In this document: piece after piece, positions 7,558-25,583 of the stretch | Layout of the letters: each line of letters starts with the position of its first letter | Position numbering within the stretch: the first letter of the stretch is position 1 | Assembly (NCBI GenBank): GCA_045594165.1 | Contig: JAZNXZ010000026.1 | Location: 1 to 27,213 of the forward strand | Direction of reading: 5' to 3' | Origin: Candidatus Scatosoma sp. | GTDB taxonomy: Bacteria > Bacillota > Clostridia > Christensenellales > Borkfalkiaceae | Length of the DNA stretch: 27,213 bases | Made by a program: the position numbers and the translations under genes | Notes under the pieces: model-generated | The model's database searches: none | Told to the model about the DNA's origin: nothing | The model's input: the letters and a program-made list of their open reading frames with translations, nothing else

Positions 7558-8412
7558 TTATTTTACAAATTCGTCGCCGACTTCTTCAAAGCCTGCGTCT
7601 TTTAATAACCCTTTGAGTGCCGCCACCGCCGCGTCAAACGCCTCGTCTGCGGTACGGAATTCAAACTCGTGTTTCATAACCGTCTTGTCAATCAGAGAAT
7701 ACCCCTCGAAAATCGAAAGATGAGGTTCAAGCGTAAACGTCTTATCTGACGTAATCGTTTTCAAAATATCGCCGATCTTGCCGTCGCCAACGCCTGCAGG
7801 TACAAGCGAACCGCTCTCTACGATAACGTCCTTGACGTGATAATAATCGATTTTACCTGCAAAAATACGTTGCGTATCCTCTGCTTTTTCGCCGCATTGC
7901 AAGTAGTTTGCAGGATCGTAAATATGGTACAGACCAGGCACGTTTTCCATGATATCCACGACACGTGCCGCCACGTCGCCGTAAATATCCTTTTCGTTTT
8001 CGTGGTACAAGCCCACGTTGTATTCCTTGGCGATCGCTACCATCTTTTTAAGACGGCTGATTACTTCGTCGCGTTTATCATACGCCTGAAAAAAGCTGAA
8101 CATACGGATTTTATCCGTGCCGAGCGCGTTTGCGATTTCGCAAGTATGGCGCAAAATTTCTTCCGTCTTTTCAAACGGGTCGTCAATGTGCGATTTACCG
8201 ATAGGCGAACCGATTGACCATACCGCCAAGCCGTTGTCCGCCAAGGTTTGACGAATCTCTTTTGCCTCTTCCACCGTCAGCGTCGTAACGTTTTTACCGT
8301 TGACCGTACGCATTTCCATATAGGGTACGTTGTTGCGCTTTAACGCCGCAATCTGTCCGTCCAACGCGCTGGACGCCTCGTCGCTGAATGCACAAAGTTT
8401 TACTTTAATCAT
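7558..8412 (-). CDS. Sugar phosphate isomerase/epimerase (xylose isomerase-like TIM barrel)
   Basis: SIGSPIGK, HENE, YDPANY, HVKD..G.GDG, TLEPH metal-binding pattern. Confidence 0.88.
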   Translation of the reverse strand: MIKVKLCAFSDEASSALDGQIAALKRNNVPYMEMRTVNGKNVTTLTVEEAKEIRQTLADNGLAVWSIGSPIGKSHIDDPFEKTEEILRHTCEIANALGTDKIRMFSFFQAYDKRDEVISRLKKMVAIAKEYNVGLYHENEKDIYGDVAARVVDIMENVPGLYHIYDPANYLQCGEKAEDTQRIFAGKIDYYHVKDVIVESGSLVPAGVGDGKIGDILKTITSDKTFTLEPHLSIFEGYSLIDKTVMKHEFEFRTADEAFDAAVAALKGLLKDAGFEEVGDEFVK

Positions 8413-8425
8413 ACTTATTCTCCTA

Positions 8426-9991
8426 TTAAATACCGTAATTATTAAATCTTTCTTCGTAAAGATAATATTTTTCAGACAAACGGTTTAAGAGCATCACGGG
8501 GATCACCTCTACGTGATGTCTGCCGTATTCTTCCACCATAATCAAAATGCGGTTGTGTGCCGAAATCTTTTCAGGCGCGGTAAGCACAATGTCTACCGCC
8601 TCCGAGTTGTACGTATTTTCGCTAATGCACCACCACTGCGGAACGAACACGTCAAATTCTTCCGCGCTTGCCGACCAACCGTCGGGCAACAGCAACGAAA
8701 CCTTGACGTTGTGCGATTGTTGACCGAACGCTTTCAAACGGTTTTGGAACATAATGGAAATACGTTTTTCTTCCCCTGCCTTGGCATACGGGCCGTCGTG
8801 AACGGTCACGAGGGCGTACGTCGCGCCGCAATTTTTAACAATCGTGTTCGGATTTTTTAACGTTAAGACGGAAACCGCCATTTCTTCCGATTCTTCGCTC
8901 TGTCCGTAAGGCAATGCAAAATATTCGATATCGCTATCCGTAAATTCGCTGTCTTCGCCGTAAACGAATTCGGGTACCTTTGCAAAGTGCCCTTTCATCT
9001 GATAGGTAACCATGGGCGCAAGTTTTACGACCTTTTCCGTCAAATTCGTGCACGTGCCAACAAACGGGAATGCCGCACCTTGGGTGATACTGCACGTCAC
9101 GATTTTATCGCCGATATATTCTTCCCAATCCTTAGGAATACCTGCCGTGCCGTACATGATACCCAGTACCGAGCCGACCGTACCTGCCGTACAATCGGTA
9201 TCGTCGCCGCAATTCACAGCCAAAAGCATGGATTTTTTGAAATCGCCTTCGCCGTACAAAAGACCGAGCGTCGCATAACCCACGTTGGAGGGCGCGCAGA
9301 ACCAACCGTCGCCGATGTCTTCATTTTCCTTGAAAATCGCGTCGCAAGCGTCCGTTGCAGGCACGCCTTTGTCGTAGCAATCCAAAATCAAACGTACGGT
9401 GCGCGCCATACGGCAATCGTACGGGATTTTTGCCAAACCGATTTCGATAAGCTTGCGCAAATCGCTAACCACGAACGCCGCGCTTTCCAACGCCGCAACG
9501 AACATAGCGGCATACGTACCCTCGCCGTTGCCGTGGTCAACCTTGGCGTCCTCAATAGCGTATCTTACCGCCATGTCGGGCTGTGCAGGGAAAAGCGTCG
9601 CCCAAATTTCCGTACGGATCCAAGCGCCGTTAGAATGTTTTAATCTGTCGTTGTTGACCGTTTCACCCGAAAGCGGAGGCACAATACCGATTTGCATGTT
9701 TTTAAGCGCAACCGAGTATTCGCCTGCGTACATGGTAATATAGGAAAGCCAATAATCACCCAAAACGTCCGCCGTGAGGTGTTTGGGACCTTCCATTTCC
9801 ATCGCGTGCAACCAAACGAGCTGTAAATCCAAATCATCGTTGGGGAGCGGCTCGCCCTTTTCGGTTACAAAACCCGTAATGTTCAATTTTTTGCGTACGC
9901 CCTCGAAAGGACCGCCCAACGTGCCGCCGATATTTTTACCGATCCAGCAAGCACGAACTTTGTCTTTGTAAACGTCGTAATTGAGTTTCAT
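8426..9991 (-). CDS. ADP-ribosylglycohydrolase family protein with a C-terminal extension, 521 aa
   Basis: GKNIGGTLG, PNDDLDLQL, SNGAWIR, NCGDDTDCTAGTVG motifs. Start moved to ATG 9991 (AAAGGTGG RBS). Confidence 0.88.
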   Translation of the reverse strand: MKLNYDVYKDKVRACWIGKNIGGTLGGPFEGVRKKLNITGFVTEKGEPLPNDDLDLQLVWLHAMEMEGPKHLTADVLGDYWLSYITMYAGEYSVALKNMQIGIVPPLSGETVNNDRLKHSNGAWIRTEIWATLFPAQPDMAVRYAIEDAKVDHGNGEGTYAAMFVAALESAAFVVSDLRKLIEIGLAKIPYDCRMARTVRLILDCYDKGVPATDACDAIFKENEDIGDGWFCAPSNVGYATLGLLYGEGDFKKSMLLAVNCGDDTDCTAGTVGSVLGIMYGTAGIPKDWEEYIGDKIVTCSITQGAAFPFVGTCTNLTEKVVKLAPMVTYQMKGHFAKVPEFVYGEDSEFTDSDIEYFALPYGQSEESEEMAVSVLTLKNPNTIVKNCGATYALVTVHDGPYAKAGEEKRISIMFQNRLKAFGQQSHNVKVSLLLPDGWSASAEEFDVFVPQWWCISENTYNSEAVDIVLTAPEKISAHNRILIMVEEYGRHHVEVIPVMLLNRLSEKYYLYEERFNNYGI

Positions 9992-10050
9992 AAAACCACC
10001 TTTCACTAAATATTGAAAACGGATTTTTGCCATATTTTCCGTTCTACGAT

Positions 10051-10122: not shown

Positions 10123-10166
10123 AAAAACAAAAGGGTTGAGCATGATTGCCCAACCCCTTGTTTTTT
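10123..10166 (-). terminator. Intrinsic terminator after the giant gene
   Basis: Minus strand AAGGGGTTGGGCA-ATCA-TGCTCAACCCTTT followed by TGTTTTT. Confidence 0.85.
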
Positions 10167-10203: not shown

Positions 10204-13200
10204 TTACGCTGCGTCGTTACCGCTGGAAGGATTTGCCCAGTAAACGTTAATTACTTCAGGATTATCATTTTGTGCTGCCAAACCTACGCCGAACGCCGTT
10301 GCGCCTTCACCGTACCATCTCAATTCGTAAACGGTATTTGCCACGAAGCTGGTTGCCTGCGTGCCGTCCATGTTGTATGCAACTACGTTAAGGCCCGTAG
10401 GGCAACCGTTTGCATTACCGTCGGAAAGGAGGTAACCACCACCGCCTTGGTTTACGCCGTCGATATAATACCAGCAGAAGAAGATGTAGGAGCTGTAACC
10501 CGTAATATCTCTGGATACTGCAAACTGAATGCTTGCGTAGTCGTCTTCTGCGTTCTTATAAATCATGGTCTTTTGATTTTCCATGCTAAGACCGAGAACA
10601 CTACCTGCGCTCCACATACTCGTACGAGCGTCTTGCGTTGCCGTGAATACCGTCGTGCCTGCTTCGAAACCGAGTTCGGTTACGTCGCCTGCATACTTGG
10701 AAGTCACACACTTGGTCGTATTTTCGAACTGTACCATCGTAGCGTCCTGCGTATAGGTGATACCCGTAGGCCATTCGGTAAGAGCCGTCGTGCCATCATC
10801 CGAGTAACCAATTACGTTAACGCTTGCAGCCTTGATGGAAACGTTGTCGTATACGATATTTTCGCCCGTATGTTGGTAACCTAATGCAACATTCAACGCA
10901 ATACCCGTTGCCTCAACTTCAACGTTCGTAAACGTGCTTACGTTAGCCGTCTGGAAACGGTTAGAGAACAACGCAACGTTCTTCCAGTCTTTGTGTTCCA
11001 TTTGGTCGATAACAACCTTAACGTTGGAAACGGTAATGTTATCCGCCCAGTGAGCAAAGAGCCCGAAGTATTGACCCCAGTTTTGGTTATTGTTATAACC
11101 CTGACCGCAGCTAGAACCGTGATATCTAACGCCTGCGAAGGTTACGTTCTTAACCGTTGCGCGATACATACCGCCGAAGATACCGCCTTCGGAAACGATT
11201 ACGTTGTTAACAATATGACCGAGACCGTCGACCGTACCACGGAAGTAGGACTTGTATTGAGTGTAACCTGCTGCGAAATAAATGCCCGAAGCGTCGATAT
11301 CGTTAGCAATTACGTAGTAACCTTCTACGTCGTTGCCTGCAACGTCAGAGTTACCTTGACCTTGCTTAACGCCGTCAACCGTTCTACCACCTACACCGAG
11401 AGCCTGCAATTCTTGCGCAGTCTTAATAATAGCGTCTGCACCGATTGCTTTCAGGTAATAAGTATCGTTTTCATGGGTGTATACGACAACGTCGTATTCG
11501 GTACCGACAGCAAAGTCTGCGTCGTACATACCGGTATTGCCGTCAAGACTGCCAACGGTGTCGCTGTAAATGAGCGTACCATCGACATAGATATATTTTA
11601 CCGTACCGTTGATATCATCGGGCAAGGTATACGAACCCGTTGCCGGCAAGAGGATGATATATTCATCCGATTCGTATGCGTTACCGTAGGTGATATCGCC
11701 GAAGTTCAAGATTGCAGAGCTTTCTGCACTAGTATCAAACGTACTTACCGCAATTGCCGACGTGTCGCCGTTGAGGAATACACGCAAGGTGTATACCGTA
11801 TTCGCTGCGAGCGAAGCAACATCAGCACCCTGTGCATCGAGAATGTAAGCCTTTCTTTCCGATGCGCCGTTTGCAGGCGTACAGCCAGCTGCGTTAACGG
11901 TGTAGTTACCAGTAAGAATGCTTGCATTCGTACCGTATGCCCATACGCAGAGCGAGTAAACCGTACGGTCGCCCGTGAACGAGAATTCTACGTCTACGTA
12001 GTCGTACTTAACGTTGCCGTATAAGCCGACGCGGTTGCCCCAAGCGTCGCCCGCAAGCGATACCTGCGTAACAGTCGAACCTGCGTCGAAGCCGAGCGCC
12101 GTTACGTCGCCTTCATACTTAGGAAGAAGAGCACCCGTTGCACTGGTATATACGTCGTTCTGTACGTCGAAGTTGCCCCATCTTGCGCTGGAAATGTAGT
12201 AGGTTTGTGCCGTACCCGTACCGAAGTGCAAGAATTTCAGCGTTTCGCCTTCTGCAAAGCATACGCGAATCGTATAGAACGTATTTGCCTCAAAACCGCT
12301 AGTGTACTGCGCTGCAAAGGTGTTGCCGTTTGCATCCCATACGTGTACGCTTCTGATTACGCTGTTGGTAGGATTCATCTGCGCACCGTAGATACCAAAG
12401 CTACCTTGCGTACCGCTACCGTTGGAAGGCCATGCCGTAAACGCACTTACTTTCACGGTAGGATATACGTCGAATTCTACGTAATCGAAATTATCCGAAT
12501 CTGCAGGGATAAGGATTCTATCCGTCCAAAGGTTGGTATTTACGATTTCGTAAACCGCATCGCTTGCCTTGAAGCCCATCGACGTCGTATCGCCGGTGTA
12601 TGCCGTCAATTCTACGTTGCTGGTGTTTTGAATTGCAACACCCGTAACGTCAGGAACCTTAACGGTTGCCGACATAACGTAGGTATCGCCATCCGTAATA
12701 ACGGTCATAACTTTACCTGCGCCAGCCGTCAATTCAACGTCGATTGCAACGTCTTTGCCGTTGAGGCTGCCGGTGGTGCTGCTGTAAACAACAGCACCGT
12801 CAACCATAATTGCTTTTACCGTACCTTCGATTGCATCAGGCAACGTGAACGTGCCGTCTTCAACCGAGATTTCTACTGTTTCATTAACTTCGACTTCGTT
12901 ACCGAAGGTAATGTCACCGAAGTTCAAGATTGCCGAGCTTTCTGCACTGGTATCGAACGTACTTACTGCAAGCGTAGACGCGTCGCCGTTGAGATATACA
13001 CGCATGATGTATACCGTATTCGCCGCATACGCATTTACCGTATTGCCGTTCGTATCGAATACCTGAATCGTTCTTGCCGATGCGTTGTTTGCAGGTACGC
13101 CGCCCGTAGGAGTAACGGTGTAGTTACCGGTAAGAATGCTTGCGTCCGTGCCGTATGCCCATACGCAGAGCGAGTAAACCGTACGGTCACCCGTGAACGA

Positions 13201-16200
13201 CCATTCAACGTCTACGTAGTCGTACTTAATGCTAGTGTTGATACCAATACGTTCATTCCAAGCATCTGCAATCGTTACCTGCGTAACCGTCGAACCAGCG
13301 TCGAAGCCAAGTGCCGTTACGTCGCCTTCGTACTTAGGAAGAAGAGCACCCGTTGCATTGGTGTATACGTCGTTTTCTACGTCGCACGTACCCCATCTTG
13401 CAGCCGTTACGTAATACGTCTGCGCTGCGTTAGGTCCGAAGTGAACGTATTTCACCGTTTCGCCTTCAACGAAGCAGATACGAACCGTGTAGAACGTGTT
13501 TGCCGCGAAACCGCCAGTATACTGCGCTGCAAAGGTGTTGCCGTTTGCATCCCATACCTGAACGTTTCTTGCCAAACCGTCGGAGGTGTTCATCTGCGAG
13601 CCGTAAATGGTCATACTGCCTTGCGTGTTGCTACCATTGGAAGGCCAAGCAGTGAAGACCGTTGCCACAGTCGTGTAAATGTCGAATTCTACGTAATCGT
13701 AGTTATCCGAATCTGCAGGGAAGAGAATTCTATTGTCCCAAGTACTAGACGATACTACTTCGAAGATAGGCGTGCCGTCTGCGAAGCCGAATGCCGTTTC
13801 GTCGCCTGTGTACTGCGTCAATTTAGCATAGCTCGTATCCAAAGGCTGGTTAGGAATAATCGCATGTGCAACCGTTTCAAACGTTACGCCGTCAGGGAAG
13901 CTTTCCATCAAAGCCGCCGTGTTCTGAACGCCGTCAGCATACGAGTCAGCCGTGTAACCGATTGCCAAGTAGCTTGCCGCCTTGATTACAACGTCTTCGT
14001 ATACGTTGCCAGTATTGTGGTGAGTACCAAGCAAGGTCTTCAAATCCATGTAGCTTGCGTCTACCATAATGTTACGGAACGTCGCTGCACCGGAAGCACC
14101 GCTATTTACAAGCAAGCCGTCTCTCTTATACGTCCATACGCCAGCAGGAGCTTTTGCCAAGCTGATTTCGATATCTTCAATCGTCGTGTTAGGAGCCACA
14201 TACGCCAAGATAGATGCGTAGCCACCAGTTTCGCTCGATACCGTATTAGGAACCGAATCCAAGAGTTGTGCGTCAACCAAGATAAGGTTTCTGATCGTTG
14301 CACCGTTTGCCGTACCGAAGATACCACCGTCCGAAACGCGCATGTTGATAAGCTGATGTCCGTTACCGTCGAATACGCCACGGAACTCGTACGAGCCTGC
14401 CACACCGAACGTACCGGACGCCTTAGCATAACCTGCCGTGATTACGTCGGAGTAGTCGTCTGCATGTTCAAACGTGATATCGTTTGCAAGTACGTAGTAA
14501 CCATTAGCGGAGTCGGTTGCCGTCGTACTGTTGCGGCCTCTACCGATAAGTTTGAGGTCTTCCGCCGTCTTGATGTACGTGATTACGTTAACGTTGGTGA
14601 AGCTGATTGCCGTTGCACCAGACGAGAGGTTAACCGTCGTCGTCGTCGCGTTGATTGCCATTGCGTCAATCGTAACCGTTAACTGACCAGCCGTTTCAAC
14701 CGTAAATTCGGTTTCTTCCATACCTGCTACGGTCATCGTCCATACGCTACCTTCCGTGAAGGCTGCGTCTTCAAACGTAATCTGATGGTTAACGTCGTTT
14801 TCGTATGCAGTTTCAATTTCTGCAAAGACTGTCAAATCGCCAATTTCCGTGGTACCGAAGTATACTGCGTTGTCTACTACCGACCAAGGTTCACCCATAG
14901 CCGTTACGTTATCCGCGGATACTTCGCTCCACAACGTGTAGCTATAGCAGGTTGCCGAAGCGTTGTTCTTAACTGCTACGATATTGGATGCGCCTGTTAT
15001 AATTGCGTGTGCATTTTCAATCGTGCCGTTGTTATTGTACGTTATCGCTGCAATCGTGTTGTCAATCAACGTAACGCCTTCTGTTACGATTACGTCAACC
15101 ATTACGTTGCGTACCGTACCAACGTTTTCTTGTGCAACGAAGCCCGTGAAGAGGTAATCATTGTATTCTCTACCAGCATGCGAATCGTTAACTTTTACTT
15201 TAGCATATACGTTTTCAACCGTACCGTTGTTGGTGTATACGATACCACGCTTGCTACCGCCCGATATGAGCGTAAAGGAGTTAAGATCGAAACCGATGTT
15301 TTCAACCGTACCGTTGTTGACGTAGATGAATGCAGGATTCATTACGCTGACACCATTAATCCAGTTGTTCGTTACCGTTTCACCCTCAATATTGGTAATC
15401 GAGTCGTGGTGAATATACGTATTTTTAATTACGTGGCCTTGACCATCGAGAATACCGTAGAATACTGCGATACCTTTCAAGGATGCACCGCTCATATCCA
15501 AATCAGACGTGAGAACGTAATGACCATAAAGGTTGGATTGAAGAATCGACTGCAATGCGTTTACGTTAGCAACGTTTGTGCTGTTGAGTTCAATTACATT
15601 TTGTACGATGTTGATAGGCAAGCTAATCTTCGTCGTACCTGCCGTAAGCGTGAGCGTCTTAACGCCACCGTCTTTTGCCGTGAACGCTGCCAAAGGCATA
15701 GCCCACGAAGACGAGTCAATCGTGCCTTCGTAAATAACCGTGTCAACGTATTTAACAGTTACGGTCTTGCCTTCGAGATAGCTGTAAACTTCGCTGAGGT
15801 CAACCGTCGCCGTATCAGCAATTACAACCGACGTACCAGCTAAGGTATGACCAAAGTTTACGTCTACTGCGTTCGCCTCGATTTCAACCAAACCGTCGTA
15901 AACTTCGTAGTTGCCGAACGTCATAACGTTTGCATCCGTTACGTTCCAAGGCGTAGCCCACGATCTTACGTTAGCGCCGTGCGTTGCGTCGTCAAGCAAG
16001 TTGTTCGCTTTTACAAACGCCGCTGCATTATCGTAGTCGCCGCTTGACGTGTTGGTGTTGCAGTTTCTAAATACGCGTACGATTTCCGTCGAATCGTTGT
16101 TATCCAACAGGATTGTGTCGTTCACTTCAACGCCCAATACGTAGAAGCCGTCCGTTTTCGTGTATGCAAGATTCGAAATCTTAGCGTACGTCAAGTCTGC

Positions 16201-19200
16201 AAACGAAACAGCCGATACGTCTACGATGATGTTATTCATTACAGAATAACCGCCCGCATTCGTATTGGTATTCGTCATGAATACCTGCGTTTCCGTACCG
16301 CTAACACCGCTTTCCATCGAAACAACCTGTACGTAGATGTTTTCGTACGTACCGCTACCACGGTTTGCAATGAGCGACGTCTGCGTGCCAATCTTCGCAC
16401 CCGTAAACGCTACGTCTTTAATCGTACCGCCACCCATCGTAATGATGAACGCGTTGTATTGACCGCTGGTTTCCATGCCCTTAATTGCATGGCCGTTACC
16501 GTCGAATACGCCCTTAAAGCCTGCGTTTTTACCTGCGCCCCAATCTTCCCAGATTGCGCCTTCGGTGTCAGCAGGTACGTCTACACCCGCCGTCAACAAC
16601 TGATAAAGCGTACCCTTACCGCCTGCGTACTTCGCGATAGGCGTCCAAACTTTGTTGTATTCGATATCGTTGCCGAGTGCGAAGTAACCGGAAAGAACTG
16701 CATTCTTCTGCAATTCGATTACTAAGCCAGCCGCTACCGAGTTGTCTGCTGCAACGGATTGCCATTGATCAAGTTCGTCTGCACTGTCGATGATCATCGT
16801 GTAAACGTTTGCGTTTACCGTGTATATCGTATTCGCCGTTTCAATCAAGAGCGCCTTGTTTTCGCCAAGGTGCGCCATCTTGACAGGTCTGCTTGCCATC
16901 GCAAATTCGCCAGCAGTTGCCGAGCTACCGCTGAATACTGTCAAATCTTCAACTGCTGCGTCGGAAGATTCGATCTTAATCGAGAGGATATCACCCGAGA
17001 TACCGTTGATACCGCTAAGGTCAAGCGTGTCGGTGATTGCCTCAATCGTTACCGTACCTGCAAGCGCGGTATGCGCTTTACCTACGGTAAACGTCATTTC
17101 TTGTACATAACCTTCGTTGGAGGTTACTACTACCGTGAACTGCGTGCCGATTGCAACGCTAGAAGCTACGCTAACCGTAGCATCGCTAACCGTTACGCCG
17201 TCTACCGTTTCTGCCAAATCATACGTGTACGTCAAAGCGTCATAACTACTGCTTACCGTCACGTCGAACGATTTGCCAATTTCCACTTCCGTCTTCGTGT
17301 TGGTAATCGTGAACGGATGCTGGAACGTAATGCCGTCAGGGAATTCGCCAAGCATTGCCGCCGTATTCGCGCCGTTGGCGGTATACGAGTCACCCGTGTA
17401 ACCGATTGCAAAGTAACCATCTGCAATAATCGTTACGTTTTCGTATACGTTGTCTTCACTATGAGTGATACCCAAGATGTTATCAATCGTCAAACCGGTT
17501 GCATCAATCGTAATGTTACGGAAAGTAGCAGCACCCTCAGAACCGGTAACGATGAGCATACCCATTCTCTGCCAAGAATATTCGCTGGGAACAGATGCTA
17601 CGGTGATGTTGATATTTTCAAACGTAGAGTTGGGAGCCCAGTGACCAAGCAAGGCAATGTAACTACCGTTGTTGTAGGTTGTTCCCGATGCAGGAAGACC
17701 GTTTCTGATATATTCTACGTTGGTGAAGTTTACGTTCTTAACGATTGCGCCGTCCATTGCGCCGAAGATACCGCCGTCTGCTACGCGGATACCGTCGATG
17801 GTATAACCGTTACCGTCGAACGTACCCTTAAATCTGTTGCTAACGCCAACACTGTTAACGTAATCATGAGGATAACCTGCCATAACTACGTCGCTCATGT
17901 CGTCTGCATGTTCGATCGTGATGTTGTTTGCAAGCATGTAGTAGCCGGTCTTGTCGCCCTCATTTGCGTTAACCAAACCACCTACGCCGATTTTCTTGAG
18001 ATCGTCAAGCGTTTCAATGTATTCGATTTGATCACATACGGCTGCAGTGAGCGTGTATTCGTACATTTCGTTTGCAATGATCAAATCTTGGCTAGGTGTG
18101 TTTGCAAGAGCTGCAACTTCCGTGCTGTCGCAGGTGATTACGCCGTCGGTAATGCTACCTACGCCCGTTGCTGCATTGTAAAGCACAACGCCGTTCATCT
18201 TCACATATTCAATTTCGCCGGTAATTGCGGTGGGAACATTAAACGTACCTACCGTCTTTTCAATAATTACGCTTTCGTCGAGCGTTTGTTTCCACTTCGC
18301 TACCTTAAAGGTACGCGTATCTACATAGCTGCCGTTGTCCGCTACTACCGTGAAGGTCGTGTTGGGCAATACGCTGTCTGCTACCGATACAACGTCACCG
18401 TTTTCACCGCCGAGCGTTACGCCCTCTGGTGCGTTTGGAATGGTGAACGTAACCGTACCCGATTCGTTATTCGTCGTGAGGGTAAGCGAGTCGCCGCCTG
18501 CGATTTCCGTTTCCGTATTCGTGAAACCGAATGCGCTGATAATCGTTACGCCTGCGGGTTTCACGCTGCTAGGCGATTGCTTGCTGCCATCGCTGTAGCT
18601 GTAGATGATACCTGCGTTCTGTTGCGAAACCTTCATAAGGAGGGTTACGTTATCACAGGTAAGCGCACCTGCATCCACGTTAGAACCGAAGATACAAGGA
18701 ATCGTGTTTTCAACGCGCGTCGTTGCATTTGCAACGTTGAGCGTTACGTTTCTGTAAATCAATCTGTTATGCGTGCCGTTTGCAATCAACAAACCGGTAT
18801 GGAAGTAGGAGGTATCGTGGTCTTCAATATCCGTGATACGGGTAAATTGAGCCGAAACGTTTTCAATCGTCGTGTTACCTCTTGCTGCGTTTGCAAACAA
18901 CGCGCCGTAGTTCCAACCTGCCGTTGCCGACAATTCGATTTCTACGCCCGTGAAGTTTACGTCTTTAATCGTTGCATTCTTCAAGCCACCGAAGATACCG
19001 CTGTCGCCTGCGATAAGGTTCGAAATCGTGTAACCGTTACCGTCGAACGTACCGATGAAGTTGGAGTTGCCATAGCTATGACCAGGCGTGAAGAGTTTGC
19101 CTGCGCAATCAATATCGTTTACAAGGAGGTAGTAACCTGCGATATCGTTGCCTACTGCTAGCGAATTGTCAGCCCCTACGCCGAGCGCCGCGAGCTGTGC

Positions 19201-22200
19201 AGCCGTCTTGATTACAGACGTTACACATACTACGTCAAATACAATGCTTTCACCGGTTTCGGTGTTTTGACAAACAACTGTCTTCTGCGCGCCTGCTGCC
19301 ATAGCGCCTACTTTAACGTTAATCTTACCGTTGCTGTAAGCGGTCATGGCCGTAGAAACGCCGTCTACCGTTACCGTATAGGACGCACCCTTAACGATGC
19401 CTTCGCTATACAACCAAGCGTCCATTTGGCCGTTGATAACGTATTGTCTCTTTGCAACCTTCGTATAATTCGTGAGAACACCCGTAGGCCACAAACCGTC
19501 CGTATTTTCTGCGTTAACCGCTACGTTTGCGAAAGAGGATGCAGACGTCGTACCGAATACGGTCGTCGCCGTCGTGGTATTTTCGCCGTTTACCGAAACC
19601 GTTACGTTGTCGATCGTCGAATTCGCCGTCGATGCCGCCAAAACCGAACCCGTAACCGTTACGTTCGTGAAGTTAACGTCCTTAACCGTTGCGTTGCTGA
19701 GCGCGCCGAAAATACCGTTTGCGCCAGCCGTGAAGTTAGATACGGTCTTGTGGTTACCGTCCAACGTGCCGCTGAACGAGCTGTTCGAAATCGTTGCACC
19801 GTCGCAGTCGATATCGTTTGCAAGTACGTAATAACCGCTGCCGCTGATAGCGTTCAAGCCGCTAACGTTCGTGATATAACCGCTGATTGCCAAAACGTCC
19901 ATAAATTTAACGTTTGCAGTCGTCGAGTTAAGTTCTACAATATAGGTCGCGCCCGCGCTAAGCGTTGCGTTAATCGTTGCCGCGCCGTCCGTTACCGTGA
20001 CGCTGTTTACCGTAGGCTTGTCGCTAGCGTCGTTAGCGTTTACAACTTTCGCCGTATACGTGCCAGCCGTCAATGCGTTGTCGTTGAGCGTGAAGCTGCT
20101 GCCAGCAACAACCGTCTGTTTGTCGTTAACCGTCGTCGAGGTTACGCTAGCAAGAATGCTTTCGATACCGCCAACAAACGTCGTCGCGTGCTTGGTTGCG
20201 TTCGTCGTATTTCTAATGGGACGACCTTCACCGTAGCTGTTAATATTCCAATGACTAACGATTTCAAGGAATTCCGCACCATACTGTCTTACATACGCAG
20301 GCGCATTGAACGTTGCCGTAGCGTAGTGACGCGTGGTACCACTGTCGTCCTCGTGTACTTCGTTTTCACCATGTACGTACATAAGCAAGTACAACGGCGT
20401 CGCTTTTTCAAGCTTGATATTCCAGTAATACGTATCGTAGTTAGGATCGTTGGGATCAAGGGCAGCAAGTGCCTGATCGATAAGATCTGCCCAATTTTTC
20501 AACGTATCTTCAGACATAGCCGTCGAATTCAATACGTCGTCGTGCCAAATGGACGGATCGTTACTGCTTACCGAGGGATCATATTCTTTCGTGGTTTTGA
20601 AATCATTCAAGTTTGCCCAAGCAAGCCATGCATCATAGTACGCCTGCATCTTTTCGCTGCCTGCGCCGTATGCACCATTGAAGTAGTCTTCAATCCAACC
20701 GTTCCAAGTGTCATCGGTAGGCTCTGCATCCCACGTCAATTTACCCATGATGTATTCTTTCAAACGGGTAAAGTTCACCTGCGAACCCATCATTTGGTTG
20801 AACATATGGTTTACGCCGTTATCAACAGCAACGCCGTAGTTTGCGCGGAGTGCGTTAAGAGAGTTATAAGGCACGAAGAACTGCGTTACCATGCCATAGT
20901 AACCCCACCAAAGAATGTCCATTTCACCGCTACAATAGGTAGTGTTAAGCGTATTGAACCCTTGCAAGTTTGTCAAGATGTTGTCGTTAACCAAGGAAGA
21001 CGTATCGGTTACGGGCACCGTATAGTCACCTGCCGTTTCTGCAAACCAAAGCTCGATATGCTTACCGTATTTTCCCAACTCAGTTGCATAATTAGCCGCA
21101 CCCGTAGGAGCAGGGTTGGTCATGTGATAGAAGAGCGACGAAATCTTGAACGTATCTTTACGTGCGTCGCCAGCAGTATTCAATGCCGAATAAACGTCTG
21201 CCGCTACGTCCAAAAGGAACTTCAACAAGTTATCAGAAGGATTGCCTGCCGCCGAACACGTATCGCATTCACACCAAACTCTGTGGTCCATGTGCGAGAA
21301 GCCAAGACGGGTAAGCTCGGGATATTCCTCCAATCTTGCAAGCATTTCGTTTACAACGACCGCCTTCATGCTCGCATAAGCCGTGCTATTGCCGTGTGCG
21401 GTATAGCAAAGTTCCGCAGGAAGATATTCGGGCGAGGACACCAACGTCTTGGAAACCACGTTGCCAAATTCATTGTATACAACGTCCGAATACGTTGCAA
21501 ACGGGTCGATTGCGCCATTGTTTACCGCATCGTCATGATACGGGTTTTCAATCGTTCTGTAAACCTCATTTTTGAATAATGAACCCAACGTTACCGTTGC
21601 GTACCATTGTTCATTGGTACCTTCTGTCGGATCATAGTCATTATTAGTACGGCTTTCCTCTTTGAAAGTGGTCGTTCTTAACAAATCGTCTACGACCAAT
21701 ACGGAGTTGTGCGCAACACCCATGTGGTATGCCGCTACTTGCACGTAATCCGTATTATTGATACCCAAGGGAATCATGCCGTCCGTATACGATTCTGCAC
21801 CGTATCCGTCTACTGCATTACCTTGCAATCTATTATAAGTAATGTCGCGCACGAAAGACTCGTCGCTGAAAATGATTTCTACGTCATTATCAACCATGTA
21901 CGTATCTTCCATCAGATATTCGTAACCAACGTGTCTGGAAAGGAATTCTTGTACGCCGTACAAAATCGCCTTGCCTTTCACGCCGCGGAAGTATGCGTTG
22001 CCCGTCGTTTCGTCAACAATCAACTGCGACGCCGTTTCCGCCGTAACCGACCACCCTTCTACTGCAACCGCCTCCGTCGTTTCACCGATAGAGATGTATT
22101 TATCAGAGCCGCTTACCGACGTTACGATCGGCAATTCCATGCCCGTTGCTTCCGCCAAAACTTTTTGCATAAGTTCTGCAGCTTCTCTTTCGATTTCCGC

Positions 22201-23247
22201 ATTATCCGAGCTTTCGTTGATATAAATCTTATAATCGGAGTTCGCGACATAATGCGTCGTGGAAACGATTTGTTCAACTGTATCTTTGGTAATGGTTGCC
22301 TGCGGGAATTCTCTAACTGCAGACGCACCAGTTGTCACCTCAACCGACGCCGTAATAACAGATTCGCCTTCTGCCTTTGCAGTAAGGGTGCTGCCGCTAA
22401 CGCCAATGACATCCGTGTTATCCGAGTCGTACGTGATATTGAAATCGTAGCCCCAGCCTTCCAATTTCTCTTTCGCCGTGTCAGAAACCGCCATGCCACC
22501 AATCTTGAGCACAGCCATCTTGTCGGACGAAGCGTCCAGCGAGTTTTCAATAAACGCCGTACCCGAATTATTGTTCTGCATAAACGAAACCATACCCGCT
22601 TCATTGAATACGAGTTCTACTTTCGTTTTGTTAACGACGTCTTGAATCAGGTCGGTAACGGTACCTTTGGGATCGAGATATTCCATCATTGCAACGTAAC
22701 CGATACTTCTGGTCGCGCTGTTTTCGGTGTAATAATACGTCGTATTACCCTCGCCGTCTGTAACCTTTACGTAGCTGCGCGCAACGATTGGACGGTTATA
22801 ATACTCGTCCGAAAGATTGTTGTACGTACCGTCTTGGTTTTTCGAACCCGTCAAAACGCTCGTCCACATCGTTTGTTCTTGATCCTGCCATTTCGCTACA
22901 GGAACGTCCAAAACTCTGTCCGTTTCATGCGTGAGCGTCTGCGAACCAAGATAGTCGGCAGGAATCATGAGCGTACCGTAACTAACGTCGTTCGTTTCAT
23001 CCCAGCCTGTAACCGTTGCTTTCGTATCACTGTCCAGAGTCGTATGGAAACGAATACCGTTAGGATTCGAGTTTCTTACCGACGCCGAATCCTCAATAGA
23101 AAACCCTTCCATCGTGCTGTACGTGGTTACAGCATCTGCTCCTGCCACTTCATGCTCAGATTGCATGAATGCCATTCCACCGACGACACAAGAAGCCGAT
23201 GCGCAAAGTGCCAAAGAAATAATCGCTTTTCTAATACTCTTTTTCAT
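10204..23247 (-). CDS. Giant secreted multidomain protein (~4347 aa): signal peptide, N-terminal domain of unknown function, Ig-like domain, DUF4838-like putative glycosidase, seven beta-helix-like modules, CBM-like beta-sandwich repeats
   Basis: Uninterrupted 13-kb ORF. AAGGAGGAG RBS before ATG 23247. Signal peptide MKKSIRKAIISLALCASASCVVGGMAF...AGA. WCECDTC motif at 21256-21276. Seven GYYxLxNDI...FxGxxDGNG motifs. Confidence 0.9.
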   Translation of the reverse strand: MKKSIRKAIISLALCASASCVVGGMAFMQSEHEVAGADAVTTYSTMEGFSIEDSASVRNSNPNGIRFHTTLDSDTKATVTGWDETNDVSYGTLMIPADYLGSQTLTHETDRVLDVPVAKWQDQEQTMWTSVLTGSKNQDGTYNNLSDEYYNRPIVARSYVKVTDGEGNTTYYYTENSATRSIGYVAMMEYLDPKGTVTDLIQDVVNKTKVELVFNEAGMVSFMQNNNSGTAFIENSLDASSDKMAVLKIGGMAVSDTAKEKLEGWGYDFNITYDSDNTDVIGVSGSTLTAKAEGESVITASVEVTTGASAVREFPQATITKDTVEQIVSTTHYVANSDYKIYINESSDNAEIEREAAELMQKVLAEATGMELPIVTSVSGSDKYISIGETTEAVAVEGWSVTAETASQLIVDETTGNAYFRGVKGKAILYGVQEFLSRHVGYEYLMEDTYMVDNDVEIIFSDESFVRDITYNRLQGNAVDGYGAESYTDGMIPLGINNTDYVQVAAYHMGVAHNSVLVVDDLLRTTTFKEESRTNNDYDPTEGTNEQWYATVTLGSLFKNEVYRTIENPYHDDAVNNGAIDPFATYSDVVYNEFGNVVSKTLVSSPEYLPAELCYTAHGNSTAYASMKAVVVNEMLARLEEYPELTRLGFSHMDHRVWCECDTCSAAGNPSDNLLKFLLDVAADVYSALNTAGDARKDTFKISSLFYHMTNPAPTGAANYATELGKYGKHIELWFAETAGDYTVPVTDTSSLVNDNILTNLQGFNTLNTTYCSGEMDILWWGYYGMVTQFFVPYNSLNALRANYGVAVDNGVNHMFNQMMGSQVNFTRLKEYIMGKLTWDAEPTDDTWNGWIEDYFNGAYGAGSEKMQAYYDAWLAWANLNDFKTTKEYDPSVSSNDPSIWHDDVLNSTAMSEDTLKNWADLIDQALAALDPNDPNYDTYYWNIKLEKATPLYLLMYVHGENEVHEDDSGTTRHYATATFNAPAYVRQYGAEFLEIVSHWNINSYGEGRPIRNTTNATKHATTFVGGIESILASVTSTTVNDKQTVVAGSSFTLNDNALTAGTYTAKVVNANDASDKPTVNSVTVTDGAATINATLSAGATYIVELNSTTANVKFMDVLAISGYITNVSGLNAISGSGYYVLANDIDCDGATISNSSFSGTLDGNHKTVSNFTAGANGIFGALSNATVKDVNFTNVTVTGSVLAASTANSTIDNVTVSVNGENTTTATTVFGTTSASSFANVAVNAENTDGLWPTGVLTNYTKVAKRQYVINGQMDAWLYSEGIVKGASYTVTVDGVSTAMTAYSNGKINVKVGAMAAGAQKTVVCQNTETGESIVFDVVCVTSVIKTAAQLAALGVGADNSLAVGNDIAGYYLLVNDIDCAGKLFTPGHSYGNSNFIGTFDGNGYTISNLIAGDSGIFGGLKNATIKDVNFTGVEIELSATAGWNYGALFANAARGNTTIENVSAQFTRITDIEDHDTSYFHTGLLIANGTHNRLIYRNVTLNVANATTRVENTIPCIFGSNVDAGALTCDNVTLLMKVSQQNAGIIYSYSDGSKQSPSSVKPAGVTIISAFGFTNTETEIAGGDSLTLTTNNESGTVTFTIPNAPEGVTLGGENGDVVSVADSVLPNTTFTVVADNGSYVDTRTFKVAKWKQTLDESVIIEKTVGTFNVPTAITGEIEYVKMNGVVLYNAATGVGSITDGVITCDSTEVAALANTPSQDLIIANEMYEYTLTAAVCDQIEYIETLDDLKKIGVGGLVNANEGDKTGYYMLANNITIEHADDMSDVVMAGYPHDYVNSVGVSNRFKGTFDGNGYTIDGIRVADGGIFGAMDGAIVKNVNFTNVEYIRNGLPASGTTYNNGSYIALLGHWAPNSTFENINITVASVPSEYSWQRMGMLIVTGSEGAATFRNITIDATGLTIDNILGITHSEDNVYENVTIIADGYFAIGYTGDSYTANGANTAAMLGEFPDGITFQHPFTITNTKTEVEIGKSFDVTVSSSYDALTYTYDLAETVDGVTVSDATVSVASSVAIGTQFTVVVTSNEGYVQEMTFTVGKAHTALAGTVTIEAITDTLDLSGINGISGDILSIKIESSDAAVEDLTVFSGSSATAGEFAMASRPVKMAHLGENKALLIETANTIYTVNANVYTMIIDSADELDQWQSVAADNSVAAGLVIELQKNAVLSGYFALGNDIEYNKVWTPIAKYAGGKGTLYQLLTAGVDVPADTEGAIWEDWGAGKNAGFKGVFDGNGHAIKGMETSGQYNAFIITMGGGTIKDVAFTGAKIGTQTSLIANRGSGTYENIYVQVVSMESGVSGTETQVFMTNTNTNAGGYSVMNNIIVDVSAVSFADLTYAKISNLAYTKTDGFYVLGVEVNDTILLDNNDSTEIVRVFRNCNTNTSSGDYDNAAAFVKANNLLDDATHGANVRSWATPWNVTDANVMTFGNYEVYDGLVEIEANAVDVNFGHTLAGTSVVIADTATVDLSEVYSYLEGKTVTVKYVDTVIYEGTIDSSSWAMPLAAFTAKDGGVKTLTLTAGTTKISLPINIVQNVIELNSTNVANVNALQSILQSNLYGHYVLTSDLDMSGASLKGIAVFYGILDGQGHVIKNTYIHHDSITNIEGETVTNNWINGVSVMNPAFIYVNNGTVENIGFDLNSFTLISGGSKRGIVYTNNGTVENVYAKVKVNDSHAGREYNDYLFTGFVAQENVGTVRNVMVDVIVTEGVTLIDNTIAAITYNNNGTIENAHAIITGASNIVAVKNNASATCYSYTLWSEVSADNVTAMGEPWSVVDNAVYFGTTEIGDLTVFAEIETAYENDVNHQITFEDAAFTEGSVWTMTVAGMEETEFTVETAGQLTVTIDAMAINATTTTVNLSSGATAISFTNVNVITYIKTAEDLKLIGRGRNSTTATDSANGYYVLANDITFEHADDYSDVITAGYAKASGTFGVAGSYEFRGVFDGNGHQLINMRVSDGGIFGTANGATIRNLILVDAQLLDSVPNTVSSETGGYASILAYVAPNTTIEDIEISLAKAPAGVWTYKRDGLLVNSGASGAATFRNIMVDASYMDLKTLLGTHHNTGNVYEDVVIKAASYLAIGYTADSYADGVQNTAALMESFPDGVTFETVAHAIIPNQPLDTSYAKLTQYTGDETAFGFADGTPIFEVVSSSTWDNRILFPADSDNYDYVEFDIYTTVATVFTAWPSNGSNTQGSMTIYGSQMNTSDGLARNVQVWDANGNTFAAQYTGGFAANTFYTVRICFVEGETVKYVHFGPNAAQTYYVTAARWGTCDVENDVYTNATGALLPKYEGDVTALGFDAGSTVTQVTIADAWNERIGINTSIKYDYVDVEWSFTGDRTVYSLCVWAYGTDASILTGNYTVTPTGGVPANNASARTIQVFDTNGNTVNAYAANTVYIMRVYLNGDASTLAVSTFDTSAESSAILNFGDITFGNEVEVNETVEISVEDGTFTLPDAIEGTVKAIMVDGAVVYSSTTGSLNGKDVAIDVELTAGAGKVMTVITDGDTYVMSATVKVPDVTGVAIQNTSNVELTAYTGDTTSMGFKASDAVYEIVNTNLWTDRILIPADSDNFDYVEFDVYPTVKVSAFTAWPSNGSGTQGSFGIYGAQMNPTNSVIRSVHVWDANGNTFAAQYTSGFEANTFYTIRVCFAEGETLKFLHFGTGTAQTYYISSARWGNFDVQNDVYTSATGALLPKYEGDVTALGFDAGSTVTQVSLAGDAWGNRVGLYGNVKYDYVDVEFSFTGDRTVYSLCVWAYGTNASILTGNYTVNAAGCTPANGASERKAYILDAQGADVASLAANTVYTLRVFLNGDTSAIAVSTFDTSAESSAILNFGDITYGNAYESDEYIILLPATGSYTLPDDINGTVKYIYVDGTLIYSDTVGSLDGNTGMYDADFAVGTEYDVVVYTHENDTYYLKAIGADAIIKTAQELQALGVGGRTVDGVKQGQGNSDVAGNDVEGYYVIANDIDASGIYFAAGYTQYKSYFRGTVDGLGHIVNNVIVSEGGIFGGMYRATVKNVTFAGVRYHGSSCGQGYNNNQNWGQYFGLFAHWADNITVSNVKVVIDQMEHKDWKNVALFSNRFQTANVSTFTNVEVEATGIALNVALGYQHTGENIVYDNVSIKAASVNVIGYSDDGTTALTEWPTGITYTQDATMVQFENTTKCVTSKYAGDVTELGFEAGTTVFTATQDARTSMWSAGSVLGLSMENQKTMIYKNAEDDYASIQFAVSRDITGYSSYIFFCWYYIDGVNQGGGGYLLSDGNANGCPTGLNVVAYNMDGTQATSFVANTVYELRWYGEGATAFGVGLAAQNDNPEVINVYWANPSSGNDAA
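11440..12621 (-). repeat. Intragenic tandem duplication, copy 2; boundaries approximate
   Basis: ATGALLPKYEGDVTALGFDAGSTVTQV and FTGDRTVYSLCVWAYGT are shared exactly with copy 1. Confidence 0.9.
12650..13836 (-). repeat. Intragenic tandem duplication, copy 1 (two beta-sandwich modules plus linker domain); boundaries approximate
   Basis: Matches copy 2 at a 1215-nt offset, e.g. an identical 38-nt tract at 13520-13557 vs 12305-12342. Confidence 0.9.
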
Positions 23248-23260
23248 CCTTTTCTCCTCC

Positions 23261-23371
23261 TTAATCGTCCCAAACTTCGCCACCGTAGTTGTCGTTATCC
23301 GATAACGTCACAATGTCGTCTTGCTCGAACATGACCACCAACAGCTTAAGCTCTTCGTAGTTTTTCATCAT
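23261..23371 (-). CDS. Small acidic peptide, 36 aa (MMKNYEELKLLVVMFEQDDIVTLSDNDNYGGEVWDD)
   Basis: Not in the ORF track. Strong AGGAGG RBS 6 nt before the ATG. Its stop TAA overlaps the AAGGAGG RBS of the giant gene. Confidence 0.75.
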   Translation of the reverse strand: MMKNYEELKLLVVMFEQDDIVTLSDNDNYGGEVWDD

Positions 23372-23420
23372 AAATACCTCCTATTCTGATGAATGCCTGT
23401 GTTGTGCTATATTTTTTTAT

Positions 23421-23475
23421 TTTTGCCAAATTGATACTTTTGCAGTTTTGCAAAATTGACGTTTTGCATTTTGTC
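23421..23475. promoter_or_regulatory. Cluster of TTTTGCA repeats, putative regulator binding sites
   Basis: TTTTGCA at 23438, 23446 and 23462, with variants at 23421 and 23469. Inverted repeat TGCAAAA-N6-TTTTGCA at 23449-23468. Confidence 0.45.
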
Positions 23476-23571
23476 ACAACGCGTCGCAAGAGTGCGCCCT
23501 CGTCTTTATATAACGCGCACGTATGCGTGTAGAGTGCCAAAATACAATATTTCACAATACTGCTACCATAT

Positions 23572-23600
23572 ATTAAACCATATCTTGGGGTATTTGTCAA
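23572..23600 (-). promoter_or_regulatory. Sigma-A promoter upstream of the small ORF and giant gene
   Basis: TTGACA-17 bp-TTTAAT with extended -10 TG. Confidence 0.7.
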
Positions 23601-23651
23601 TACTTAAAAATTGCAAATACATGCTCAAAAATATCATCTTTTCTTTTTTGC

Positions 23652-23695
23652 AAAAAAATAAAACGGTTACCTCGTAATTCGAAAAATAACCGTTT
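23652..23695 (-). terminator. Probable terminator of the AraC gene
   Basis: AAACGGTTA...TAACCGTTT inverted repeat followed on the minus strand by TATTTTTTT. Confidence 0.55.
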
Positions 23696-23716
23696 ATAAT
23701 ATAAAAACTGATGATA

Positions 23717-24538
23717 TCAATGCTTGTATTTTAACCGATACGCATAGGGAGAATCTTGATATTTTTCCTTGAATTGCTTAATAAAATACGCTGACGATTC
23801 GTAGCCCAACATTTCCGCGATTTCATTGACGGAATCCTCCCCATATAAAAGATATTCCCTCGCCCTTTTTAAGCGCAACTCTCTGCGGTACTGTATGGGC
23901 GACATCCCCATACACCGTTTGAATATTTTTCGGAAATACACTTCGCTGATGTGGCACATCTTCGCCAGGCTCTCCACCGTCGTGTTTTCCTGAAAACGCT
24001 CTGTGAGATATTCTACGCCCTTTTGTATCCAACCGAAATGTTTGCTGTTCGATTTCCCCAACTGTTCCAGTACCCCCAGCTCGCTGATTAACGTATACAA
24101 AACGCAATCGTATTTCACGGGCAACTGCGGCACGGACAAAGAAACCTGTTTGACATCGTTAAACAGTAATTCAAAAACTTTATTTTTGGGGAAATGCAAT
24201 ACATCGCAGGAAAACTCAATATTTTCCCCATTTTCGTCAAACAACGAAAAGTGCACGCCTATCGTTTCCGTTTTTTCTTCCTCCACGTCCAAAAAACGGA
24301 TATCGTATTCGCTACCTCTGGGCGTATAGACAAGATCCCCTTGTTGCACCTTAATTTGGTCCCCATTTTTGTTGGTATACACCGCACCTCCGCGAAGATA
24401 CAGTAAAAACAGATGCTCCTTTTTAGGCGTCCCAAAACAATCCCAGGTTTTATCGTGTTTCCAAACCTGCTTCAATACGCTCATAAATTTTACGGTATAC
24501 TGCGTTTGATAAAAATCAGAAATCTTTTGACAAACCAT
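23717..24538 (-). CDS. AraC family transcriptional regulator
   Basis: N-terminal cupin-like domain; C-terminal LAKMCHISEVYFRKIFK...GMSP...SVNEIAEMLGYESSAYFIKQFK. ATG 24538 has a GGAG RBS; starts at 24550/24553 are possible. Confidence 0.92.
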   Translation of the reverse strand: MVCQKISDFYQTQYTVKFMSVLKQVWKHDKTWDCFGTPKKEHLFLLYLRGGAVYTNKNGDQIKVQQGDLVYTPRGSEYDIRFLDVEEEKTETIGVHFSLFDENGENIEFSCDVLHFPKNKVFELLFNDVKQVSLSVPQLPVKYDCVLYTLISELGVLEQLGKSNSKHFGWIQKGVEYLTERFQENTTVESLAKMCHISEVYFRKIFKRCMGMSPIQYRRELRLKRAREYLLYGEDSVNEIAEMLGYESSAYFIKQFKEKYQDSPYAYRLKYKH

Positions 24539-24554
24539 AACTTTCTCCATCAAA

Positions 24555-24583
24555 AGTATAACACCTTACGAGCATAAAGTCAA
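24555..24583 (-). promoter_or_regulatory. Sigma-A promoter of the AraC gene
   Basis: TTGACT-17 bp-TATACT with extended -10 TG. Confidence 0.7.
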
Positions 24584-24763
24584 GTTTTGTTTCTAAAATT
24601 ATATTTTAATATCAATTTTATCTTACAAAATGCAAAGCGAAGTATTATAATTAAATCACAAAAGCAGCGGCGGATAAAAATTTTGTTATTACGCATTAAG
24701 CATTATCGTTTGTTTGTAAGGCATTTTGACAATTTGACGGCATACATGTCGCAATGAACACAA

Positions 24764-24793
24764 AAAAAGCACAGGATAAAGCCTGTGCTTTTT
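24764..24793. terminator. Bidirectional-type terminator hairpin downstream of the SHOCT gene
   Basis: AAAAAGCACAGG-ATAAAG-CCTGTGCTTTTT, perfect 12-bp arms. Confidence 0.8.
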
Positions 24794-24833
24794 GCTATCG
24801 TTTAAGTAAATTTCGTCGAAGTGTTTTTCAAGA

Positions 24834-25550
24834 TTAAAGCCCCAAAATTTGCTTTTTCTTTATTTCATATTCTTCTTGCGTAATAATTCCGCTATCCAAA
24901 AACGATTTCAGTTTTTTCAGGTCGTCAAGCTCGTCTTTTTCAGCTTTTTCTTGAACCACTTTCACTTCGGTATCTTTTTGCCGTTTATTGAGAAGTTGCG
25001 TTAATACGTTACCAATATCTTGAGCGTTTTCAATCATAAAGAATTTGGTGATACCCGATGATGTTGTAACACTGATTACAGACATTATTTTAGAGGTAGC
25101 GTATGCCGATACCATATGCATAGGCAGGGTAACCTCTTTCCCAAAAAATGTTTTTCCTTTTACGTTCGTTTCTGTAATCAACAATTCACTTCTCGTGTAA
25201 CCAAAATACAAAATGGTAGAAATTATCCCCAATCCTATAAAAATAAAGACGAAGATAGTTACAACCAAAACACGCGGTCCACCATCCCAAAAAGGAGTGT
25301 TAAAATAATAAGAACCAAAACTTGTTAATCCCCAATCCGCCAACAATTCTTCATAACTAGAATATCTGTATTCATATCGCTCATAGAAATATTTTGCATG
25401 CTCAAGCGCACCTTTATAGTCTTCTGAAAGATATGATATTTGCACCATTAAAAAAAGTAGTGCAATCATAAACTGACAGAATATCACTCCCAATAACACC
25501 CATTTCCATTTTTTGTCAAAGTTGCTTTTAATTAAAATCTTTTCATTCAT
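24834..25550 (-). CDS. Membrane protein with a C-terminal SHOCT domain, 238 aa
   Basis: Two hydrophobic segments; C-terminus DELDDLKKLKSFLDSGIITQEEYEIKKKQILGL. GGAGG RBS before ATG 25550. Confidence 0.82.
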   Translation of the reverse strand: MNEKILIKSNFDKKWKWVLLGVIFCQFMIALLFLMVQISYLSEDYKGALEHAKYFYERYEYRYSSYEELLADWGLTSFGSYYFNTPFWDGGPRVLVVTIFVFIFIGLGIISTILYFGYTRSELLITETNVKGKTFFGKEVTLPMHMVSAYATSKIMSVISVTTSSGITKFFMIENAQDIGNVLTQLLNKRQKDTEVKVVQEKAEKDELDDLKKLKSFLDSGIITQEEYEIKKKQILGL

Positions 25551-25583
25551 AGATTTTCCTCCAAAAAATTTGTTGATATGATT

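Follow-up and report, generated by a model that had tools for sequence, protein, structure and literature searches.

What does a gut bacterium make with a gene for more than four thousand amino acids (aa), and what would so long a protein do once it has left the cell? The question is raised by a 27,213-nucleotide stretch of the genome of Candidatus Scatosoma sp. (NCBI GenBank assembly GCA_045594165.1, contig JAZNXZ010000026.1, positions 1 to 27,213, forward strand; hereafter the window), which carries one giant gene on its minus strand at 10204..23247. We read its product, at a probability of about 0.68 for the reading as a whole, as a Sec-exported multimodular hydrolase with a DUF4838 domain, an arm of beta-helices and sandwiches, and a head that is predicted to bind a small peptide. 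A first, sequence-only reading of the window had proposed a secreted giant in which a DUF4838 domain of glycosidase type is linked to beta-helical modules and to sandwiches resembling carbohydrate-binding modules (CBMs). Our analysis supports that proposal, and the domain order that it gave, from the signal peptide to a fifth YxGD module at the C-terminus, is borne out on a single uninterrupted open reading frame (ORF).

The ORF is unbroken on the minus strand from 10204 to 23283, over 4,359 codons counted from a GTG at 23283, and residue numbers throughout this text follow that GTG. The ATG at 23247, which lies behind the ribosome-binding site AAGGAGGAG, is the likely start of the gene; the product from this codon has 4,347 aa, the same as in the public protein record for the contig. 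Past the stop codon stands a terminator-like hairpin of 13 pairs followed by a T-run (10130..10159, minus strand). An NCBIfam search of the giant protein gave no match.

A reading frame of this length could result from faulty assembly, either as a chimera, a worry that the sequence-only reading had itself raised, or as a wrongly assembled array of repeats. The source is a fragmented metagenome-assembled genome (MAG; 200 contigs, 72% complete, 1.37 Mb), and DNA repeat families mirror the protein modules, with tandem duplication at a spacing of 1215-1218 nt and 77-84% identity across the sandwich array. However, an independent NCBI assembly (GCA_052834745.1) holds, on a 285-kb contig, an orthologue of 4,346 aa with 81% identity over 100% of the length, and both the order of the seven plus five modules and the arrangement of the flanking genes are identical to those of the window. 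Ten more relatives, of 2,448-3,938 aa, were found in other assemblies; the window protein and its orthologue are the largest among 18 relatives compared. Because the independent assembly contains a full-length orthologue with equal architecture and neighbours, the giant ORF is no chimera, and we regard an assembly artefact as scarcely credible.

The catalytic region (aa 336-1010; 20254..22278, minus strand) consists of an alpha/beta domain like GH20b/GH67N and a DUF4838 (beta/alpha)8 barrel. Pfam DUF4838 (PF16126) is matched at aa 638-884 with 60-66 bits against a cut-off of 26.6 (E 3e-16 to 5e-18), preceded by a weak Glyco_hydro_20b match (aa 343-435, E 0.26). The AlphaFold model of the region, built from an 80-sequence alignment, has a predicted local distance difference test (pLDDT) of 91.6 and a predicted template modelling score (pTM) of 0.92 and forms a barrel, so that the assignment to DUF4838 and a TIM barrel stands both in the family match and in the fold. 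The neighbours of the model among AlphaFold Database (AFDB) clusters are DUF4838 proteins, at a template modelling (TM) score of about 0.6. A PDB sequence search with the region returned nothing, and neither a Glyco_hydro_20 match nor the H-x-G-G-D-E motif of GH20 was found in the giant protein. An exhaustive search with aa 335-1010 recovered 1,027 relatives, 340 of them at E <= 1e-10, and the closest (>40% identity) are other multidomain giants, followed by many stand-alone DUF4838 proteins of ~650 aa at 26-33% identity. The same genome encodes two more DUF4838 genes (contigs C70:4617-5711 and C165:822-1949, in ORFs of 730 and 821 aa), and a related MAG has a further one 7 kb upstream of its giant gene (L007:1-1046). 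When the genome itself was searched for GH20, the NagB family and sulfatases, each search yielded a single weak or ambiguous match, which is uninformative on the substrate.

The description of DUF4838 as uncharacterised, with which the sequence-only reading worked, is outdated. DUF4838 enzymes have been characterised only recently, and two activities are known: the domain is the catalytic domain of CAZy families GH163 and GH185, both of which cleave beta-linked N-acetylglucosamine (GlcNAc) with assistance from the substrate (PMC10570127). The founder of GH185, Sp_0475 of Streptococcus pneumoniae, is a retaining, substrate-assisted exo 6-sulfo-beta-GlcNAcase in which residues Q174, H227, D309, Y436 and the sulfate-binding R633 have been validated by mutagenesis (PMC10570127). 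In the 80-sequence alignment, which reaches down to 22% identity, the columns G400, H525, D666, Y719, Y795 and E959 are invariant. We set counterparts in Sp_0475 by invariance and residue spacing, rather than by a direct alignment to it. On this basis H525 (21709..21711; invariant in 80/80) is the probable counterpart of H227, D666 (21286..21288) that of D309 and the probable acid/base, and Y795 (20899..20901) that of Y436, all on the minus strand. D666 and Y795 are 129 residues apart, D309 and Y436 127. The spacing from His to Asp is 64-95 in stand-alone relatives, a range that covers the 82 of H227-D309, and is 141 in the window protein because of an extra stretch of ~100 aa. In the AlphaFold model D666, Y719 and Y795 sit at or just past the C-terminal ends of barrel strands.

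Because the invariant residues are kept, the spacing fits and the positions lie at the strand ends of the barrel, we take the catalytic machinery to be intact and the DUF4838 domain to be probably active. Loss of catalytic residues had been named beforehand as grounds for giving up the glycosidase proposal; the His, the Asp, two Tyr and the Glu are all invariant. The same observation bears on a quite different view of the protein, as chiefly an adhesin or surface-coat protein in which DUF4838 would be a non-catalytic lectin. Inactive lectin derivatives usually lose such residues, yet every giant relative keeps all the family-invariant active-site positions, and this view seems to us improbable. 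The hydrolase reading would have the region at aa 336-1010 as the single catalytic unit, a DUF4838 barrel of the GH163/GH185 kind, which would most likely cleave a beta-linked N-acetylhexosamine (HexNAc) in a complex glycan, retaining and with substrate assistance; by homology D666 would serve as acid/base, with H525 and Y795 assisting.

Close to the putative acid/base lies the CxCxxC motif that had been noticed in the DUF4838 region. It reads CECDTC (aa 671-676; 21256..21273, minus strand), with cysteines C671, C673 and C676, and is accompanied by C626 (21406-21408). All four cysteines are kept in 78/80 relatives, and in the other 2/80 C626 is gone along with most or all of the CECDTC cysteines. 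This joint loss in two sequences hints that the four cysteines make up a Cys4 site, for a metal or as disulfides, which begins five residues past the catalytic Asp and may buttress the catalytic loop. The GH185 paper makes no mention of such a site (PMC10570127).

Most of the chain beyond the enzyme is made up of repeats. The modules were delimited by self-comparison and by profiles built from the protein's own repeats (each E <= 1e-61), and these profiles recover exactly seven beta-helix and five YxGD modules, the number that had been counted from motifs, whose positions all fall inside modules. On the minus strand, beta-helix module 1 covers aa 1091-1307 (19363..20013), module 2 aa 1310-1585 (18529..19356), module 3 aa 1708-1996 (17296..18162), module 4 aa 2116-2394 (16102..16938), module 5 aa 2528-2772 (14968..15702), module 6 aa 2857-3141 (13861..14715) and module 7 aa 3907-4186 (10726..11565). 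Each was delimited by its own-repeat profile, and module 2 also matches Pfam Peptidase_M26_N (31.4 bits, cut-off 27.7). The first four of the CBM-like YxGD beta-sandwiches, together with small linker domains, occupy 11677..13842 (aa 3148-3300, 3307-3463, 3551-3705 and 3712-3869), and the fifth forms the C-terminus (aa 4186-4352; 10228..10728), all likewise on the minus strand and delimited by own-repeat profile. Among the 18 relatives, head and catalytic unit are constant, while the helix modules number 1-7 and the sandwiches 0-9. Between head and catalytic region lies the Ig-like linker domain that had been proposed (aa 236-335; 22279..22578, minus strand); it is kept on the strength of its motif and has no Pfam match.

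The helix modules had been likened to GLUG-associated passengers. Pfam gives no GLUG match, and the helices are instead of the Peptidase_M26_N type, as in IgA1 proteases. They could in principle be enzymes in their own right, acting as polysaccharide lyases or hydrolases, and the protein would then have several catalytic units. However, they match the non-catalytic helices of IgA1 (M26) proteases clearly better than they match generic beta-helices, and we consider such an activity very improbable. Neither an HExxH motif nor a Pfam match to the M26 catalytic domain was found in the giant protein. The C-terminal YxGD module has a CBM-like jelly-roll fold and a PDB sequence search with the module profile returned nothing; the sandwiches are CBM-like by fold only. 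In the hydrolase reading, the seven helices, with their small Ig-like linkers, would form a long spacer and interaction arm, and the five jelly-rolls, to judge by their fold, may hold polymeric or particulate substrate.

Export is indicated by a strongly hydrophobic signal peptide (aa 13-49; 23137..23247, minus strand) with a conserved AxA site ahead of the head domain; the giant protein, as a very long multimodular glycoside hydrolase, would thus leave the cell via Sec. Apart from one marginal internal stretch (~aa 1347-1369), the signal peptide is the only strongly hydrophobic segment of the protein. Pfam and motif scans of the giant protein gave no sortase signal, SLH, dockerin or lipobox, and a hydropathy scan gave no membrane segment at its C-terminus. 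Its single LPATG is internal (aa 3879) and has no hydrophobic tail behind it, and the signal peptide contains a Cys for which the small residue at position -1 is absent in most relatives. Because the known anchor types are absent from the protein, surface attachment is not established, and the elongated surface scaffold of the sequence-only reading is an interpretation that finds no direct support here. The sole candidate for attachment to the surface would be the head domain.

This N-terminal head follows the signal peptide at aa 50-235 (22579..23136, minus strand). A domain at this place had been predicted and is present, at ~190 aa rather than ~130 aa. It has no Pfam match and no PDB sequence match: a search of 24 aligned head relatives gave five unrelated Pfam families, each in one member (E 0.006-0.07), and a PDB search with the head profile gave six matches only (E 0.33-0.75), which we regard as noise. 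The head occurs in 49/60 sampled congeners, in up to 19 copies per genome and with >250 matches, and the ORFs that it mostly opens are 450-3,765 aa long. Beyond the genus only 4/299 genomes of the class have it, in each case at an internal position and with a weak match, so that its expansion is confined almost wholly to this genus. In the source genome, head and signal peptide are all that the giant has in common with two unrelated secreted proteins, one of 1,622 aa (four helix modules, no DUF4838) and one of ~500 aa, and each is preceded by a micro-ORF.

The micro-ORF of the giant gene lies at 23261..23371 on the minus strand and encodes an acidic peptide of 36 aa; it has its own AGGAGG ribosome-binding site, and its TAA stop falls within the ribosome-binding site of the giant gene. 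The paralogues in the same genome are at L014:10365-10505 (minus strand; equal to L009:1447-1587) and L022:1299-1463 (plus strand); one paralogue has 47 aa. Giant relatives also carry the micro-peptide upstream, even where their other neighbours differ. We surveyed the pairing in 30 congener loci with a head domain. Wherever the head comes straight after a signal peptide (27/27 loci), a micro-ORF of the same strand directly precedes the gene; the 3/30 loci with an internal head lack one, and the micro-ORF profile found no further match anywhere in the 30 loci. The 32 distinct micro-peptides have 35-52 aa, a net charge of -2 to -11 and a consensus of K-x-Y, a hydrophobic stretch, D-[IV]-x-[RT]-[TS]-S, DN-x-G and a C-terminal Trp. 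They match neither NCBIfam nor Pfam, and Protein Atlas look-ups of head domain and micro-peptide led to unnamed clusters only.

Complex prediction for the head (with signal peptide) and the micro-peptide gave an interaction prediction score from aligned errors (ipSAE) of 0.85 (median of 3 runs), whereas the best control reached 0.01. The mark of 0.85 is reached by 58/80 solved complexes and by 2/110 mismatched pairs, counts that hold roughly here, our own alignments having been used. The runs have at least 54% of contacts in common, with a partner pLDDT of about 50. The score is unlikely to stem from a memorised structure because no similar complex has been solved. The confident contacts run from peptide residues 24-34 to head positions among which are the invariant R70, R78 and G103 as well as P108, W132, L144 and G146, and the invariant residues R70, G76 and R78 lie in the predicted groove. 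The tail of the micro-peptide is thus predicted to dock in a conserved, Arg-lined groove of the head.

In the hydrolase reading, the head, common to many large secreted proteins of the genus, is predicted to bind the acidic tail of the 36-aa peptide, and the pair probably handles or retains the giant protein, as escort, placeholder ligand or anchor; a part in catalysis is unlikely. A broader proposal, which we advance tentatively and hold at somewhat less than even chances, is that head and micro-peptide together make up a device of two parts, not described before and spread through the genus, that serves very large secreted proteins, with the giant glycosidase as one of its cargoes. The peptide might then be an export escort, a tether, or a stand-in for an acidic ligand of the cell wall that fills the groove until the head arrives there.

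Three other accounts of the micro-ORF were considered and rejected. A YxxPxL-like start and Thr/Ser ahead of the tail had hinted at a lasso-type or lanthipeptide precursor; no maturation enzyme adjoins in the loci examined, and the ring-forming positions are not conserved. As for a pheromone with a double-glycine leader, DN-x-GG is found in some members only, and no peptidase-containing ABC transporter stands beside those loci. If, finally, a +1 frameshift joined the micro-ORF and the giant gene into one product, the acidic peptide would come to stand ahead of the signal peptide.

Several observations weigh against the reading as a secreted HexNAc-cleaving hydrolase with a peptide-binding head. 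The Pfam match to DUF4838 spans profile positions 100-325 only and misses the first 100; the AlphaFold model nonetheless shows the whole N-terminal alpha/beta domain and barrel by which the DUF4838 fold is defined. Identity to stand-alone DUF4838 proteins is low, at 22-31%, and the giants carry a beta-rich stretch of ~100 aa in the barrel (about aa 540-625) that those relatives do not have. The counterparts proposed in Sp_0475 cover H227, D309 and Y436, three of its five validated residues. On the side of the head, the complex model leaves the fold of the micro-peptide itself uncertain, and the exported head and a peptide that lacks any signal for export have no evident place to meet. Finally, the nearest solved folds of the catalytic model are the alpha-glucuronidases of GH115 and GH67, and a substrate other than HexNAc is possible. 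The barrel might act on a uronic acid or another sugar, as these families do, and the protein would then be a hydrolase of plant or microbial cell-wall glycans. Besides the structural neighbours, this is favoured by a ruminant-gut habitat in which plant glycans dominate and by the large sequence diversity within DUF4838 that has been stressed (PMC10570127). We judge it unlikely, and prefer a beta-HexNAc-cleaving enzyme.

The habitat is indicated by the metagenome records that contain relatives, which are from ruminant gut (Roe_deer_Cecum, XIEF21-1 ..._METAG). Upstream of the giant gene an AraC-family protein is encoded (23717..24553, minus strand), which may play a regulatory role; most related loci, though not every one, have it at the corresponding position. 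Across 23000-27213 the G+C content is 0.36-0.41 upstream, against about 0.48 in the giant gene and the pur operon, and this low-G+C region encodes the AraC protein, one with a SHOCT domain and one with a metallo-beta-lactamase fold. The gene after the terminator-like hairpin has its own promoter-like site. It encodes an ADP-ribosylglycohydrolase-family protein (535 aa) and opens a trio at 6351-10033 (minus strand), whose other members encode a xylose-isomerase-like TIM barrel and a Gfo/Idh/MocA oxidoreductase. Pairs of Gfo/Idh/MocA and TIM-barrel proteins carry out oxidative, non-hydrolytic glycoside cleavage, and the trio may therefore work on sugars that have been released. The trio adjoins the giant gene in three related lineages and not in a fourth; because the pur operon shows the same pattern of conservation, the linkage may be plain lineage synteny.

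The enzyme class is already known, as is, in Gram-positive bacteria, the design of one barrel with many modules. What appears new is the clade with its size, the employment of helices of the M26 type as a repeated spacer, the unclassified sandwiches, and a head that is restricted to the genus and obligately paired with a micro-peptide. Among DUF4838 enzymes the clade stands apart as a giant, secreted form, from ruminant-gut Clostridia with genomes of 1-3 Mb. Since ~13 kb, near 1% of the genome, is spent on one enzyme, its substrate is probably central to the niche, and the clade could be a source of a new specificity with uses in the analysis or remodelling of glycans. That micro-ORF and head are so strictly paired on dozens of large secreted proteins hints at an unknown step in export, holding or regulation.

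Among known systems, Sp_0475 is an exo-acting enzyme of >633 residues from a cluster without signal peptides, whereas the window protein has 4,347 aa, is secreted, and has the extra stretch in its barrel and 12 further modules. GH185 cluster 3 of the sequence similarity network (SSN) is delimited by >30% identity and the lack of a signal peptide, and the window protein, with a signal peptide and 22-31% identity to stand-alone relatives, lies outside it. Residue numbering like that of Sp_0475 was seen in none of 50 aligned stand-alone proteins drawn from the best 150 relatives. The founder of GH163, BT1035 of Bacteroides thetaiotaomicron, cuts GlcNAc-beta1,2-mannose in complex N-glycans (PMC10570127). 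It resembles the window protein as an extracellular DUF4838 enzyme with a putative carbohydrate-binding module, and it acts on large glycans. In contrast, the module of BT1035 is a single one of F5/F8 type C, and the enzyme is part of a surface system of Bacteroides, whereas the window protein has unclassified sandwiches and beta-helices; no F5_F8_type_C match was obtained in Pfam scans of the whole giant protein or its pieces. A literature search for GH163 was dominated by other glycoside hydrolases and turned up no additional characterisation of the family, and one for BT1035 led no further than PMC10570127.

The N-terminal beta-helix that marks the M26 IgA1 proteases (PDB 7uvk, 7jgj) and BACOVA_03286 (3n6z) is present in the window protein as well. 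The window protein differs from the proteases in that their HExxH motif and catalytic domain are absent and the helix is repeated seven times.

In overall plan the window protein resembles the large secreted glycosidases of Gram-positive bacteria. Its architecture had been read as a non-cellulosomal and non-Sus way to capture glycans; this does not in itself amount to a new strategy, since Gram-positive bacteria usually handle glycans with secreted glycosidases that are large and multimodular. The GH84 enzymes NagH and NagJ of Clostridium perfringens, with CBM32, likewise combine one barrel with many binding or spacer modules, are secreted and serve glycan foraging; StrH and BgaA of S. pneumoniae are also large multimodular glycosidases. 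These proteins have known anchors or CBM families and 1,000-2,200 aa, whereas the window protein has no recognised anchor, is about double that length and, unlike them, takes as its repeat unit a helix of the IgA1-protease type.

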